Shown piece by piece: positions 13,896 through 53,645 of a stretch of DNA of 62,664 bases. Every line of letters begins with the position of its first letter. Within the stretch, counting starts at the first letter, position 1. This DNA is from Candidatus Shapirobacteria bacterium (lineage in GTDB: Bacteria > Patescibacteriota > Microgenomatia > UBA12405), in the NCBI GenBank assembly GCA_028704635.1, contig JAQWFB010000006.1:1-62664 (forward strand). Direction: 5' to 3'. The position numbers and the translations under genes were made by a program. Below the pieces are notes generated by a model, which searched no databases, was not told the origin of the DNA, and saw only the letters and a list, made by a program, of their open reading frames with translations.

Positions 13896-13907
13896 TTAAA
13901 CTTGTCC

Positions 13908-15818
13908 ATGGAAGATATTTTAGAAGGGTTAAACCCAAATCAAAAAGAAGCAGTCACTCATATTGGTTCTCCTTTGCTTTTATTAGCTGGAGCTGGCTCT
14001 GGTAAAACTCGGGTCTTAACTCACCGGGTAGTCTATTTTATTCAAAAGAAAATTGCCAAACCCTCAGAAATTTTACTTCTCACTTTCACTAACAAGGCCG
14101 CCGAGGAAATGAAAAATCGCACCCAAAAATTAATACCATCTGTAAGGGCGAATCATGATTCGCCCTTACAAAAAAATACAATCTTTGCTGGAACTTTTCA
14201 CTCTTTTTGTTGTAGAGTTTTACGTGCCGATGGTAATAACATTGGCATTCCTCCTAAATTTGTTATCTATGACTCTAACGATCAGGAAAATTTAATTAAA
14301 AATATTCTTCACGAAATAGGTTTAACCACTAAAGAATTTAAACCATCAAGTGTCTTGTATTATATCGAAGCCGCTAAAAATTCTTTTCAAACTCCAAAAG
14401 ATATGATTGCTCAAAGCCATGGTTTTTGGCAAGATTATGCCAGTAAAATTTATTCTCGTTACCAACAAAAATTATTTGAATTTCATGCTCTCGATTTTAA
14501 TGATCTTTTATTTAAAACAGTTGAATTGTTTTTACAATATCCCGATGTTTTAGCCAAATATCAAGATATTTACAAATTCATTATGGTTGATGAGTATCAA
14601 GACACTAATCAAATTCAATATCTTTTAACTAAACTTTTAGCCCAAAAATATAATCAAATCACTGTTGTCGGTGATGCTTCTCAAGCCATTTATGGTTGGC
14701 GCGGTGCCGATTATCGCAATCTTGTTAGTTTTACTACCGATTTTAAAAACACCAAAGTTATTAATCTTGAAGAAAATTATCGATCCACTCAAATTATTCT
14801 CGATGCCGCCAACACTGTTATTTCCAAAAATAATTCTCATCCCATTCTAAAGTTATTCACTCAAAAAAAATCAGAGGATAAAATTAAAATTTTTGAAGCT
14901 GAATCAGAAGTTGCTGAGGCTGATTTTGTTGCTTCCAAAATTAAATTTATTAATGATAATTTAAAAATTCCTTTACGAAATATTGCCGTTCTTTACCGAA
15001 TGAATGCTCAATCTCGTGTTTTAGAAGAAGCCTTTTTACGTCAGAGCATTCCATATGTTTTACTAGGAGGCATTCGCTTTTATGAACGTGCCGAAATCAA
15101 AGATATTTTATCCATGCTTCGTTTTGCTAGCAATTCGGCCGATCATATTTCTGAGGAAAGAATTGAAAAAGCTCTGGGTAAACGCAAAAAAGCCGTTTTA
15201 ATGGATCATCTCAAAGACATGGATTTAGAAAATCTTACCTCTCTTCAAATTTTAGAATCATTGGTGGTTAATTCTGGCTATCTTGATAAATTTGACGCTA
15301 AAGATGAAGAAGATCAAAAAAGAATCGAAAATATTAAAGAATTAAAATCAGTTGCCGCCTCTTATCCCAATCTATCTGCTTTCTTGGAAAATATTACTCT
15401 GGTTCAGCAGGAATATTCCCTTCAAGAAAAAAATAAGAAAAAAGAAAAACGCGACGGGGTTAAATTAATGACTCTTCATAGTGCTAAAGGGTTGGAGTTT
15501 GAAGTTGTCTTTATGGTGGGGTTTGAAGAGGGAATTTTACCTCATTCTCGTTGTTTAATTAATGAATCAGAAATAGAAGAAGAGCGCCGTCTTTGCTATG
15601 TCGGTATTACTCGTGCCAAAGACTATCTTTATCTCTCCTATGCATCAAGACGCCTATTTTTCGGCAAAAGTAGTTTAAATGAACCCAGCAGATTTCTATC
15701 AGACATCCCGTCTGAATTAGTTGAATTTGAAGAAAGTTTAGAAACCTTTCGTGATTATCGCCACCCCAGAAAATCAAAAGATGATGATGATATCATTTAC
15801 GACCCCGATATTTATTAA
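13908..15818 (+). CDS. pcrA: ATP-dependent DNA helicase PcrA/UvrD (SF1)
   Basis: LNPNQKEAV..LLLLAGAGSGKTRVLTHR (motifs Q/I), VDEYQDTN, VGDASQAIYGWRGA, NYRS, and TLHSAKGLEFEVVF..YVGITRAK. The start is ATG at 13908 or TTG at 13902. Confidence 0.9.
   Translation: MEDILEGLNPNQKEAVTHIGSPLLLLAGAGSGKTRVLTHRVVYFIQKKIAKPSEILLLTFTNKAAEEMKNRTQKLIPSVRANHDSPLQKNTIFAGTFHSFCCRVLRADGNNIGIPPKFVIYDSNDQENLIKNILHEIGLTTKEFKPSSVLYYIEAAKNSFQTPKDMIAQSHGFWQDYASKIYSRYQQKLFEFHALDFNDLLFKTVELFLQYPDVLAKYQDIYKFIMVDEYQDTNQIQYLLTKLLAQKYNQITVVGDASQAIYGWRGADYRNLVSFTTDFKNTKVINLEENYRSTQIILDAANTVISKNNSHPILKLFTQKKSEDKIKIFEAESEVAEADFVASKIKFINDNLKIPLRNIAVLYRMNAQSRVLEEAFLRQSIPYVLLGGIRFYERAEIKDILSMLRFASNSADHISEERIEKALGKRKKAVLMDHLKDMDLENLTSLQILESLVVNSGYLDKFDAKDEEDQKRIENIKELKSVAASYPNLSAFLENITLVQQEYSLQEKNKKKEKRDGVKLMTLHSAKGLEFEVVFMVGFEEGILPHSRCLINESEIEEERRLCYVGITRAKDYLYLSYASRRLFFGKSSLNEPSRFLSDIPSELVEFEESLETFRDYRHPRKSKDDDDIIYDPDIY
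14141..14170. repeat. Perfect 30-bp GC-rich palindrome TGTAAGGGCGAATCATGATTCGCCCTTACA embedded in-frame in pcrA
   Basis: The first 15 nt are the exact reverse complement of the last 15. It encodes VRANHDSPLQ in the variable loop between helicase motifs Ia and Ib. It has the same length, TGTA/TACA termini and CATG centre as the GTAGAGACG palindromes. Confidence 0.85.
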
Positions 15819-33330: not shown

Positions 33331-33334
33331 ACCG

Positions 33335-33362
33335 TAGAGACGCCCCCGGCGGGGCGTCTCTA
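33335..33362. repeat. GC-rich REP-like palindrome TAGAGACGCCCC-CGGC-GGGGCGTCTCTA
   Basis: 12-bp perfect arms and a 4-nt loop, 5 nt after the grpE stop. It shares the (G)TAGAGACG / CGTCTCTA(C) arms with the copies at 35352, 47098 and 53618. Confidence 0.8.
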
Positions 33363-33412
33363 TCTCCAAAAAACAATTTATAAATTAAAAGTTAAAGATT
33401 AAATAAAAACAT

Positions 33413-35351: not shown

Positions 35352-35381
35352 TGTAGAGACGCGCCATGGTGCGTCTCTACA
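35352..35381. repeat. 30-bp REP-like palindrome TGTAGAGACGCGCCATGGTGCGTCTCTACA
   Basis: One mismatch from a perfect palindrome (a G-T pair). It lies 10 nt after the dnaK stop and is identical to the reverse complement of 47098-47127. Confidence 0.85.
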
Positions 35382-35398: not shown

Positions 35399-36253
35399 AT
35401 GAAAAAAGATTTTTACGAATTATTAGGCGTCCCTAAAACTGCCACCAAAGAAGAAATTAAAAGCGCTTACCGTAAGTCAGCCTTAAAATTTCACCCCGAT
35501 AAAAACAAAGCTCCTGATGCCGAAGATAAATTCAAAGAAATTAACGAAGCCTATGAAGTTTTAAGTAATGATCAAAAAAAATCGGCTTATGATAAATTCG
35601 GCCATGCCGCTTTTGATCCATCCTCAGGCGGTTTCGGCGGTCACACCTACACTCAGCAAAACGGTCCTAATTTTACTTACACCCAAAGTGGTAATCCGTT
35701 TAGTGGTGCAGATTTTGATTTTGGCGGATTTAGTAACCCTTTTGATATTTTTGAACAATTTTTTGGTGGTTCTTTTAGTGGACAGCAAAGTCAAGGTAAA
35801 CGTCTCGAAACTTATAAAATTTCTCTTTCTTTTTTAGAAGCTGCCAATGGTTGCCAAAAAGAAGTTTCTATCGCTGGCCGTAAAAAAACTCTCAAAATTC
35901 CTGCCGGTGTCGACGATGGTCAAAAAATTCGTTTTTCCGAGTTTATTCTTTATATCGATGTTCAACCAGATAAAATTTTTAAACGCGAAGGTAACGATGT
36001 TTTTGTAAATGTAAATATAAAGCTTAATCAAGCTATTTTTGGTGACACCATCGAAGTTTCCACTCTTAAAGATCCTCTTAAAGTTCGCATAAAACCGGGT
36101 ACTCAACCAAACACTTTAATTCGTCTTAAAGGACAGGGAGTTAAGGATGTAAATGGTTATGGACAAGGAGATTTTTATATTCGTCTTTTTGTTGAAATTC
36201 CAACTAAACTAACTTCTCGTCAAAAAGACTTATTAAAACAGCTAGATTTGTAA
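35399..36253 (+). CDS. dnaJ: J-domain co-chaperone DnaJ/CbpA-like (class B, no zinc-finger domain)
   Basis: DFYELLGV..KSAYRKSALKFHPDKN J-domain and a G/F-rich region, then C-terminal beta domains. No CxxCxGxG repeats. ATG at 35399. Confidence 0.85.
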   Translation: MKKDFYELLGVPKTATKEEIKSAYRKSALKFHPDKNKAPDAEDKFKEINEAYEVLSNDQKKSAYDKFGHAAFDPSSGGFGGHTYTQQNGPNFTYTQSGNPFSGADFDFGGFSNPFDIFEQFFGGSFSGQQSQGKRLETYKISLSFLEAANGCQKEVSIAGRKKTLKIPAGVDDGQKIRFSEFILYIDVQPDKIFKREGNDVFVNVNIKLNQAIFGDTIEVSTLKDPLKVRIKPGTQPNTLIRLKGQGVKDVNGYGQGDFYIRLFVEIPTKLTSRQKDLLKQLDL

Positions 36254-46871: not shown

Positions 46872-47447
46872 TTATTTTTGCCAATTAATAGGATTATTTT
46901 TAATATATTGACGTATATTATTTAATTCTATTTCGGATTTGATAATTTGATCATAATAACGACTTTGCCAGCCAAAAAATAAATTATTTTGATTACAAAT
47001 TCGCTTTACTGATGATTTATATTGATTAATGATTTTTGGAATGGTTTGATTAGATTTAATCGCTAATCGATGAAAATGATAATTTTGATATTTTATTTGT
47101 AGAGACGCACCATGGCGCGTCTCTACATGATTATCAAGCGTTTCCACGCTTTTATCTGGCGTCTCTACAAGGAATAGAATATGCACATGATTTGGCATAA
47201 CAATAAATTCATCCAAAATTACATTTGAAAAATGTTTATAAATATCAATTAAATATTGATTTGCAATTTCACCAATAGTTGATAATTCCATTTTATTATT
47301 AATAATTTTTCCAAAGAAATTATTATCGTTTAACGTTTTTATAGTAATAAAATAAAAACCTGGTGTAGAATAATCCCAATTATTTAATCTTGATGATTTT
47401 GTTTTAAATTTATCGGCAAATTTTTCAGGATTTTGAATATCAGACAC
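46872..47447 (-). CDS. IS200-like Y1 (HUH) transposase, REP-associated tyrosine transposase (RAYT)-like
   Basis: 191 aa. It has an HUH motif in MPNHVHILF and the C-terminal GWQSRYYDQIIKSEIELNNIRQYIKNNPINW typical of RAYT/IS200 TnpA. There is no tnpB and no flanking IS ends. The segment VETPDKSVETLDNHVETRHGASLQ is encoded by REP-like palindrome copies. Confidence 0.75.
   Translation of the reverse strand: MSDIQNPEKFADKFKTKSSRLNNWDYSTPGFYFITIKTLNDNNFFGKIINNKMELSTIGEIANQYLIDIYKHFSNVILDEFIVMPNHVHILFLVETPDKSVETLDNHVETRHGASLQIKYQNYHFHRLAIKSNQTIPKIINQYKSSVKRICNQNNLFFGWQSRYYDQIIKSEIELNNIRQYIKNNPINWQK
47098..47127. repeat. 30-bp REP-like palindrome inside the RAYT-like gene
   Basis: TGTAGAGACGCACCATGGCGCGTCTCTACA. 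Its reverse complement (the coding strand) is 30/30 identical to 35352-35381 and encodes VETRHGASLQ. Confidence 0.85.
47158..47169. repeat. Additional REP half-site (GGCGTCTCTACA) inside the RAYT-like gene
   Basis: Exact match to one palindrome arm. A degenerate copy (GTGGAAACG on the coding strand) lies between it and the full palindrome. Confidence 0.6.
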
Positions 47448-53617: not shown

Positions 53618-53645
53618 GTAGAGACGTTCTGCAGAACGTCTCTAC
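53618..53645. repeat. Perfect 28-bp REP-like palindrome GTAGAGACGTTCTGCAGAACGTCTCTAC
   Basis: Exact self-complement with the same GTAGAGACG arms as the copies at 33335, 35352 and 47098. It lies between the cassette terminator and the alaS promoter. Confidence 0.85.

Follow-up and report, generated by a model that had tools for sequence, protein, structure and literature searches.

Repetitive extragenic palindromic elements (REPs), short hairpin repeats rich in G and C, are believed to owe their spread in trans to REP-associated tyrosine transposases (RAYTs), Y1/HUH enzymes that act on single-stranded DNA. Among the Rickettsia palindromic elements (RPEs), RPE-1 is roughly 100-150 bp long and specific to Rickettsia. 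Intragenic REPs of the GTAG and CGTC types occur in many bacteria, with an excess in replication and repair genes (Di Nocera, De Gregorio and Rocco, 2013, BMC Genomics 14:522, PMC3733652). That survey, with its 24 REP families, documents REPs lying entirely inside open reading frames (ORFs) as an exception to the extragenic location, lists two UvrD/REP helicases, both with CGTC REPs (residues 278-288 and 914-923), and equates RPE-4 and RPE-6 with CGTC REPs. Characterized TnpA_REP enzymes bind folded single-stranded REPs, require GTAG and cleave at a flanking CT; the S. maltophilia enzyme no longer cleaves when the tag is changed to GTAC, and the E. coli enzyme tolerates no GTAG mutation (PMC8266576). 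Here we analyze a 30-nt palindrome inside the helicase gene pcrA of a Candidatus Shapirobacteria bacterium, a member of the candidate phyla radiation (CPR). The palindrome lies on a stretch of 62,664 nt (contig JAQWFB010000006.1, the whole of which we call the window). An initial annotation of this DNA had pointed it out as an in-frame insertion.

We consider it likely that the palindrome belongs, by its sequence, to the GGGCG/ATCATGAT subfamily of the GTAG superfamily of REPs and, jointly with this assignment, that a REP of this GGGCG type landed in frame in the loop between helicase motifs Ia and Ib in an ancestor of these Shapirobacteria, was tolerated, and has since fossilized. The features at the insertion site are as follows.

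13902-15818, plus strand: pcrA/uvrD helicase ORF, recognized with Pfam and PDB 1pjr, host of the insert
14082-14102, plus strand: helicase motif Ia, TFTNKAA, followed by the helix that precedes the insert
14141-14170, no strand assigned: the palindrome TGTAAGGGCGAATCATGATTCGCCCTTACA, inside pcrA, translated VRANHDSPLQ
14189-14203, plus strand: GTFHS, the start of motif Ib, on the strand after the insert

The pcrA palindrome and the GGGCG family of repeats

The initial annotation gave the sequence and coordinates of the element exactly: positions 14141-14170 hold TGTAAGGGCGAATCATGATTCGCCCTTACA, a perfect 15+15 palindrome of 30 nt with the anatomy TGTA-AGGGCG-AATCATGATT-CGCCCT-TACA. It is single-copy in the window (searched with up to three mismatches) and has a GC content of 47%, compared to 32% for the window. 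Its half-palindrome of 15 compares with longest values of 7-13 when the window was simulated 100 times under a first-order Markov model. The 70-nt context folds as a 13-bp hairpin, both as RNA (-20.5 kcal/mol, z = -7.2) and as DNA (-14 kcal/mol, z = -6.7). The element thus has the form of a REP hairpin, a GC-rich stem-loop of 20-40 bp. It departs from the definition of REPs in its location inside pcrA rather than between genes, and in a tag that reads GTAA on both strands where GTAG is expected. Being a single compact palindrome without a spacer, it is not a REPIN, the REP doublet that forms a hairpin. The window is identical to assembly GCA_028681165.1 across 12,965 nt, and Logan contigs from two landfill metagenomes span the palindrome with zero differences. 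Scanning the whole window against Rfam at gathering thresholds gave zero matches, placing the hairpins outside known RNA families, and full-text literature searches for the strings GTAGGGGCG, CGCCCCTAC, GTAGAGACG, and CGTCTCTAC returned only primers of no relevance.

The core GGGCG-NATCATGAT-NCGCCC, usually GTAG-tagged, is shared by elements in many phyla and is multi-copy in some genomes. In IMG/VR, the pattern GTANGGGCG-N10-CGCCCNTAC gave at least 180 matches in at least 117 stretches. Among the matches listed, contigs carry up to 5 copies per 5-10 kb, with a centre that is constant within a contig. The commonest position-4 form is GTAGGGGCG...CGCCCCTAC (G,C; 80/180), mismatches at this position are common ((C,C) 24, (G,G) 24, (A,C) 20), and the symmetric A·T form of the window is rare (2/180); (C,C) is the form of the pcrA orthologues at loci L001 and L005. 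One IMG/VR element, GTAGGGGCGAATCATGATTCGCCCCTAC (L102), differs from the window element at the position-4 pair only, and the centre TATTGCAATA, which we describe below for the pcrA copy of locus L039, recurs among these matches. A scan of GTDB, with one genome per species, gave at least 130 matches to GGGCGNATCATGATNCGCCC in many phyla, some on several contigs of single metagenome-assembled genomes (MAGs). Those listed include Acidobacteria (at least 10 contigs of one MAG), Phycisphaerae, Pirellulales, Anaerolineae, Flavobacteriales, Myxococcota, Cyanobacteria, Uhrbacteria, and Margulisbacteria, among others. In 121 of the 130 the N pair is complementary (A/T 49, C/G 41, G/C 28, T/A 3; other 9), and GTAG frequently stands on one flank only. 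The Shapirobacteria pcrA copies themselves are not among the matches listed from either collection. As this anatomy corresponds to the GTAG-tagged REPs of the 2013 survey (PMC3733652), we assign the matches, and by resemblance the pcrA palindrome, to that superfamily.

The 20-bp REP core (GGGCGAATCATGATTCGCCC, with C/G and G/C variants) is identical at loci L205-L322, which come from many phyla and range from 33% to 70% GC. Such identity across phyla points either to horizontal spread of the REP/RAYT system or to very strong recognition constraints. Closer to the window, the landfill metagenomes that contain this genome hold a 32/34-identical copy on another contig, with unrelated, AT-rich flanks; that contig is at similar depth (37.7 versus 30.9 in one run, 10.6 versus 17.3 in the other). 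A low-depth landfill contig has a copy beside GC-rich DNA. These contigs hint at one or more further GGGCG-type copies in an AT-rich genome of the same landfill community.

The Ia-Ib loop in PcrA and its orthologues

The host ORF starts at TTG 13902 by mechanical call, and the database protein P0001 begins at ATG 13908. Its product is an SF1 helicase of the PcrA/UvrD type, with matches to Pfam UvrD-helicase (6e-86), UvrD_C (7e-62), and PDB 1pjr (5e-147). When we aligned Geobacillus PcrA and E. coli UvrD with phmmer, both showed a 9-residue gap at the insert; by hand count the gap follows residue 84 of 1pjr, with TFTNKAA before it and (G)TFHS after it. Pfam, 1pjr, and this gap agree with the initial annotation that the palindrome lies between motifs Ia and Ib and adds VRANHDSPLQ, and the gap also means that the ten residues are not conserved in distant PcrA and UvrD proteins. 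An AlphaFold model, with 29 orthologues as input, had a mean predicted local distance difference test score (pLDDT) of 69; values fell below 50 at residues 79-90 of the database protein (VRANHDSPLQKN), between a helix (62-75) and a strand (93-96), and the surrounding 1A/1B core was confident. From the alignment gap and the low pLDDT, we read the insert as a loop extension that is predicted to be disordered, in keeping with the surface loop that had been anticipated.

The element is read as xxT GTA AGG ... TTA CAA, giving VRANHDSPLQ. The initial annotation had taken it as a signal that this phase is shared with a palindrome inside the RAYT gene of the window. Both copies are indeed read in this way (VRANHDSPLQ and VETRHGASLQ), but the agreement is uninformative: of the other two frames of the pcrA element, one contains TAA (xTG TAA) and the other TGA (TCA TGA). 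The observed frame is the sole open one, in both orientations of the palindrome, and we rejected the shared phase as a signal on these stop-codon grounds. The element in the RAYT gene, of the GAGACG type, can be read through in two frames, both of which occur among RAYT homologues (about 88 VET..SL, about 25 CRD..VST).

For comparison we took the best 120 homologues of PcrA, which come from Candidatus Shapirobacteria and relatives; a metagenome scan for PcrA relatives yielded mainly distant orthologues, with about 15 closer than 73%. The Ia-Ib loop is hypervariable among the 120. The ortholog alignment that the initial annotation had called for revealed a patchy insert. It is missing in the closest relatives, P0002, P0004, and P0005 (93-95% identity; loop KLINKNNKENIFA), and a 10-residue insert at the identical junction is present in P0006, P0007, P0009, P0029, P0030, and locus L039 (75-90% identity). 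A manure metagenome strain, about 93% identical, retains it as well. Two further proteins, P0003 (93%) and P0056 (74%), have VETPRRGVST and VETSRRGVST in this place, which are translations of a GAGACG REP. In the pcrA gene of P0003 (L003 10229-10257), this is a 29-nt REP, GTAGAGACGCCCCG-A-CGGGGCGTCTCTAC, accompanied by about 16 extra nt in the loop; its left arm is read VET and its right arm VST, as the frame shifts inside the element. In a neighbor-joining tree built with the loop masked, every insert-bearing PcrA has an insert-less sister.

Perfect palindromes of 20-30 bp are retained in four lineages (75-100% protein identity). The loop of L001 holds a perfect 20-mer, GGGCGCATCATGATGCGCCC, with the centre CATCATGATG, that of L006 holds GCACGCATCATGATGCGTGC, and that of L039 holds GGGCGTATTGCAATACGCCC, with the centre TATTGCAATA. 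Where the palindrome is kept the peptide varies (VRAHHDAPLQ, VRTHHDACLQ, VRAYCNTPLQ). In L005 (P0009), VRANHDSPLQ is intact and the palindrome is broken by synonymous changes (GCT, TCA), with the tag carried on the bottom strand (..CCCCTAC). The palindromes of L007 and L012 are degenerate. Across six orthologues, 84% of cells were paired, compared to 73% after shuffling (0/500 shuffles reached the observed value) and 31-43% with a slid partner. Six pairs, including the two central pairs, had changed on both sides, and thus are compensatory changes. All GGGCG-type inserts agree exactly in junction, in frame, and in the codons on either side (..TTA xTA xxx xxT|GTA ... CAA AAA..). Orthologous pcrA copies come from assemblies of JGI, ENA, and Logan.

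At least three palindrome types occupy the Ia-Ib loop in different lineages. Besides the GGGCG and GAGACG types, we noted a GC-rich mini-palindrome, GCGGGC-CT-GCCCGC, at L013 721-734 and L014 10230-10243, encoded in proteins P0013, P0031, P0042, P0043, P0058, P0076, P0080, P0084, P0085, P0088, P0089 (two copies), P0104, P0105, and P0117. It is translated in two frames across orthologues (AGLPA and SGPAR), which points to an element at the DNA level. The loop of a PcrA that is 43% identical (L066, approximately 995-1035) holds a decayed GTA...TAC palindrome of about 40 nt, GTACGAGGACAGCCCTCAGCTGAGAGCTGCCCTCTCAC (peptide VRGQPSAESCPL), and that of P0022 holds a possible decayed GAGACG copy. Metagenome contigs of related strains (runs X1-X4, 14129-14184) break at or near the palindrome boundaries, with loose ends at 14129, 14140/14141, 14172/14173, and 14182-14184. 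Breaks at these edges are consistent with a loop that varies among strains in natural populations.

Coding copies in other genes and the link to RAYT genes

The initial annotation had envisaged further coding copies in the same phase. We found GGGCG-type copies in genes that are unrelated to pcrA:

L228: pyruvate phosphate dikinase (PPDK), IGANHDSPVH, Pfam-confirmed, in frame
L249: IF-2, VGANHDSPQE, Pfam-confirmed, in frame
L279: leucyl-tRNA synthetase (LeuRS), GGANHDSPLQ together with the GAGACG-type ETHHDASLQ, Pfam-confirmed
L287: MTHFR/pterin-binding protein, VGANHDSPVK, Pfam-confirmed, in frame
L289: arginyl-tRNA synthetase (ArgRS), VGAHHDAPVA, Pfam-confirmed, in frame

The consensus reading of the coding copies is V/I/G-GA-N/H-HD-S/A-P. 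In leuS of L279 (1414-1565, GC 34%), two in-frame REPs, one per family, lie about 120 nt apart; ETHHDASLQ derives from TTAGAGACGCATCATGATGCGTCTCTAC, and this GAGACG copy has the CATCATGATG centre seen in the L001 pcrA copy. The L279 assembly is labeled Gammaproteobacteria, looks CPR-like, and encodes both RAYT types (L324; P0179, probably on the same contig).

GGGCG-type elements also lie inside RAYT genes. At L228, 2.4 kb from the PPDK copy, a RAYT ORF of 186 residues has, downstream of MPNHIHMII, GTAGGGGCGAATCATGATTCGCCC (VGANHDSP) and two GGGCGATTCTTGAATCGCCC-GTAC units. In roughly 12 of its closest homologues (within P0241-P0360), PNHIH..IVGANHDSP or VGAHHDAP is followed by RAIRESPLQ, a head-to-head REP pair; such pairs inside RAYT genes look REPIN-like in sequence. 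Remoter homologues carry other REP peptides (VGAIHESPLQ, VGANGRSPLH, GRGTACRAPT). RAYTs of the VGANHDSP type are also present at the AT-rich loci L324 and L325 (33-35% GC), of which L324 belongs to the assembly whose leuS has both REP types; L324 itself also has an intergenic GAGACG REP.

The window itself has a RAYT gene, of the GAGACG type, and four GTAGAGACG...CGTCTCTAC palindromes:

33334-33363, no strand assigned: intergenic GTAGAGACG REP GTAGAGACGCCCCCGGCGGGGCGTCTCTAT, 4 nt past the grpE stop, before dnaK
35352-35381, no strand assigned: intergenic GTAGAGACG REP TGTAGAGACGCGCCATGGTGCGTCTCTACA, in the dnaK-dnaJ gap
46872-47447, minus strand: RAYT-like Y1 (HUH) transposase, with a GAGACG REP in the ORF directly after the HUH motif
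47098-47127, no strand assigned: GTAGAGACG-type REP TGTAGAGACGCACCATGGCGCGTCTCTACA, in the RAYT ORF, read VETRHGASLQ
47160-47168, minus strand: additional GTAGAGACG half-site in the RAYT ORF, encoding the first VET of VETPDKSVETLDNHVETRHGASLQ
53618-53645, no strand assigned: intergenic GTAGAGACG REP, a perfect 28-nt palindrome with a CTGCAG centre, upstream of alaS

The element with which the initial annotation compared the pcrA palindrome, TGTAGAGACGCGCCATGGTGCGTCTCTACA at 35352-35381, is real, and 47098-47127 in the RAYT ORF is its near-twin. A CATG centre and a length of 30 nt had been proposed as family features and fail as such: the GAGACG copies in the window are 28-30 nt long with the centres CCGGC, CCATGG, and CTGCAG, and their constant part is a 9-nt arm. 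The mechanical start of dnaJ (35366) is an ATG in the REP centre CCATGG, and in the ORF so called the DnaJ domain begins at residue 15; as the likely true start is MKKDFYE at 35399, we regard the REP at 35352-35381 as intergenic. We dropped the idea that GAGACG/CGTCTC is a BsmBI-like restriction site, for want of supporting evidence.

The ORF at 46872-47447 matches Pfam PF01797 with 28 bits (cutoff 23), has HVH and a C-terminal Y-motif region, and has homologues named REP element-mobilizing transposase RayT; comparison with PDB chains by phmmer gave nothing meaningful. No REPs flank the gene. In about 110 of 120 homologues of this clade (P0121-P0240), a palindrome-encoded peptide, such as VETHHGASLQ, VETPYMASLQ, or CRDVACNVST, stands immediately after the HUH motif, duplicated or split in some. 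The window RAYT reads LVETPDKSVETLDNHVETRHGASLQ at 47098-47168 (minus strand), with three GTAGAGAC-like left arms (one degenerate, GTGGAAACG) and a single right arm, and looks like an interrupted or partly duplicated REP; homologues have VETPDLASLQ at the first position of this region.

Because both elements sit inside RAYT genes after the HUH motif, the GGGCG and GAGACG elements appear, from these sequences, to be sister REP families, each tied to a RAYT subfamily. As far as searched, a REP inside a RAYT ORF is not mentioned in Nunvar 2010, Di Nocera 2013, Bertels 2017, or Quentin 2018, and Di Nocera 2013 noted only flanking repeats that overlap RAYT gene ends (PMC3733652). A RAYT with a REP inside its own ORF after the HUH motif is apparently an undescribed architecture.

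Close relatives also carry coding GC-rich near-perfect palindromes that are unrelated in sequence to both REP families: at the 3′ end of gatC (L001/L002 14081-14110), in a DUF2298 gene (L006 8858-8879), and in a PMT gene (L006 2480-2499); they include TCCGCCAAAGGCGGATCCGCCTCTGGCGGA and ACCTGCCTGCCGGCAGGCAGGT. In remoter CPR bacteria (L083 1260, 4733, and 6710; L080 14168), we observed AGACG-[CAGGATCCTG / CGATTAATCG / TGGCATGCCA]-CGTCT and GGGACGCACATGTGCGTCCC, in which arms are conserved and centres are variable yet perfectly palindromic. Two near-perfect palindromes of 61-65 nt, built on TTGGAGCAGCTCCATTGGAGCAGTTC, flank the pcrA region of an organism of 41% GC (L065 1494-1554 and 2512-2576).

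Origin of the insert and comparison with known systems

We propose that a copy of the subfamily GTAG-GGGCG-[A/C/G]ATCATGAT[T/G/C]-CGCCC(-CTAC) entered the pcrA loop in the ancestor of a Candidatus Shapirobacteria subclade. A GTAC/GTAG-tagged GGGCG REP would have inserted on single-stranded DNA, with a RAYT acting through the hairpin. The insert may have survived because three circumstances coincided: a length of 30 nt that preserves the frame, landing in the only stop-free frame, and a disordered surface loop that tolerates 10 hydrophilic residues. Afterwards it would have been inherited, lost, decayed, or replaced lineage by lineage, with the arms mostly changing together where it was kept. 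In this genome, synonymous CGG>AGG and CTA>TTA changes would have turned a C·C mismatch at position 4 into an A·T pair, a step that may have perfected the palindrome and at the same time erased GTAG on both strands. Since both arms now read GTAA, the window copy is, by analogy with characterized RAYTs, probably inert: an immobilized, uncleavable, translated fossil. Its effect on PcrA is presumably little or none. The patchy orthologues, the repeats across phyla, the phase-matched coding copies in other genes, and the RAYT-internal copies bear out the initial suggestion that a member of a mobile hairpin family was inserted in frame, in the manner of RPEs, into a permissive loop, and the identical junction, frame, and flanking codons argue for one insertion event or for allele exchange. 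Family recognition constraints, conversion from other copies, and template switching are all possible causes of the arm co-variation.

Several observations weigh against this history. The defining GTAG is missing on both strands of the window copy. The window has a single RAYT, which is of the GAGACG type and carries the sister GAGACG element, and a cognate GGGCG RAYT is absent from the window. A search of the 62.7-kb window, of 8.6 kb upstream of it (L323, an extension that has no GC-rich palindrome), and of about 250 kb of close-relative loci gave no further GGGCG-type copy. Insertion events and RAYT activity have yet to be observed in CPR organisms. Complementarity extends to the four central nucleotides, which the hairpin does not need, and which indicate that something beyond simple hairpin stability shapes these elements. 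The patchy distribution could also mean repeated insertion or allele exchange instead of one old insertion.

That last point leads to a reading that we find possible but doubt, in which the loop is a recurrent landing site and the pcrA palindromes are independent insertions or replacements by different REP variants. The insert-less sister of each insert-bearing protein suits this reading, as do the differing centres (AATCATGATT, CATCATGATG, TATTGCAATA), each variant of which is seen elsewhere in the family, and the other occupants of the same loop: the 29-nt GAGACG REP of P0003/L003 and P0056, the decayed GTA..TAC palindrome of L066, and the GCGGGCCTGCCCGC mini-palindrome in two frames at L013 and L014. 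It sits poorly with the junction, frame, and flanking codons common to all GGGCG-type inserts, for which common descent or allele exchange is the simplest account. A related idea, which we put forward only tentatively, is that the RAYT-internal REP is functional, as an autoregulation site or as a master template that holds enzyme and repeat in co-evolution, with intragenic copies like that of pcrA as its offspring, and that the Ia-Ib loop is a preferred landing site in which palindromes are re-templated in situ. The occupation of the loop by at least three palindrome types suggests such a preference, and re-templating in situ would explain both the symmetry to the centre and the coordinated changes of the arms.

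The hairpin might instead be REP-derived and exapted, kept in pcrA by selection on an mRNA structure that adjusts translation or decay, a DNA cruciform, or a protein-binding site. We consider this unlikely. Perfect palindromes in four lineages, the six compensatory pair changes, the strong predicted RNA hairpin, and retention of the insert in the manure strain speak for it, but the palindrome of L005 decayed synonymously with the peptide unchanged, those of L007 and L012 decayed too, and the nearest relatives lack the insert altogether. It is because of this decay and absence in close relatives that we treat pcrA-specific selection as a minority view. Arm complementarity is moreover family-wide (the 121 of 130 GTDB matches listed) and needs no function particular to pcrA, and pairing of the four central bases is useless to a hairpin. 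Template switching in quasi-palindromes, or gene conversion from other copies, can yield the same pattern without selection. Very improbable, in our judgment, is an adaptive protein feature for which the DNA palindrome is incidental: P0009 does keep VRANHDSPLQ through the synonymous decay of its palindrome, but the ten residues are absent from the closest relatives as well as from distant PcrA and UvrD proteins, change in sequence where the palindrome is kept, recur in unrelated enzymes and RAYTs, and fall in a segment predicted to be disordered. The chance that the palindrome is a random occurrence or an assembly artefact is negligible, as simulations never attained a half-palindrome of 15, and the same sequence is present in the NCBI assembly and in Logan contigs of two runs, with orthologous copies from three sources of assemblies.

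The insertion of a GGGCG-type REP, which remains our preferred account, would place REP/RAYT systems with intragenic copies among the small, streamlined genomes of the candidate phyla radiation. The orthologues form a natural allele series of one loop in an essential gene: filled, empty, decayed, compensated, and replaced. Recognizing the recurring peptides VGANHDSPLQ, VETRHGASLQ, and CRDxxxxVST as translated REPs helps annotation and flags false family signals, and the REP-inside-RAYT architecture could bear on how domesticated transposases recognize and maintain repeats.

Among described systems, the GTAG REPs of Di Nocera and colleagues come closest. Like them, the pcrA element is a short GC-rich palindrome, with a tetranucleotide foot that in REPs is of the GTAG type; the GGGCG family shares with them alternative complementary stem residues and, at other loci, an association with RAYTs; and, as in their intragenic examples, the whole copy lies in an ORF and encodes about 8-10 residues. 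It differs in that its host is a CPR bacterium outside the 2013 survey, that the copy is symmetric, with the tag on both arms and both tags mutated to GTAA, that it is perfectly palindromic to the centre, and that it sits between motifs Ia and Ib, whereas the REPs in the helicases of that survey are of the CGTC type and lie elsewhere in the protein. RPEs (Ogata et al., 2000, via PMC3733652) are likewise in-frame palindromes in ORFs of functional proteins, typically at surface positions; in contrast to them, the pcrA element is 30 nt, of the GTAG type, and has relatives in many phyla. The likeness is one of function only.

The RAYT genes recall REPIN/RAYT systems and REPtrons, in which a single-copy HUH/Y1 gene stands beside cognate GTAG-headed hairpins, with the tag and the hairpin recognized on single-stranded DNA (Nunvar 2010, PMC2817692; Bertels and Rainey 2011, PMC3116915; Ton-Hoang/Messing 2012, PMC3479197; Corneloup 2021, PMC8266576). 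In a classical REPtron the REPs flank the RAYT, whereas in the window, as in about 110 of the 120 homologues, the REP is inside the ORF after the HUH motif, and the window RAYT is unflanked. The presumed chemistry is the "peel-and-paste" of IS200/IS605 elements, in which a Y1 HUH enzyme, guided by a tetranucleotide, precisely excises and inserts single-stranded DNA with a hairpin as its substrate (PMC8266576); unlike those elements, a REP has neither a transposase nor left and right ends, and REP mobility in vivo is putative for this clade. In-frame palindromic repeats are thus already known, from the RPEs of Rickettsia and from the intragenic REPs of 2013, UvrD/Rep helicases included. The present case adds an intragenic REP in a new lineage, a copy whose tag is mutated and whose symmetry is complete, and alleles that are unusually informative as a set.

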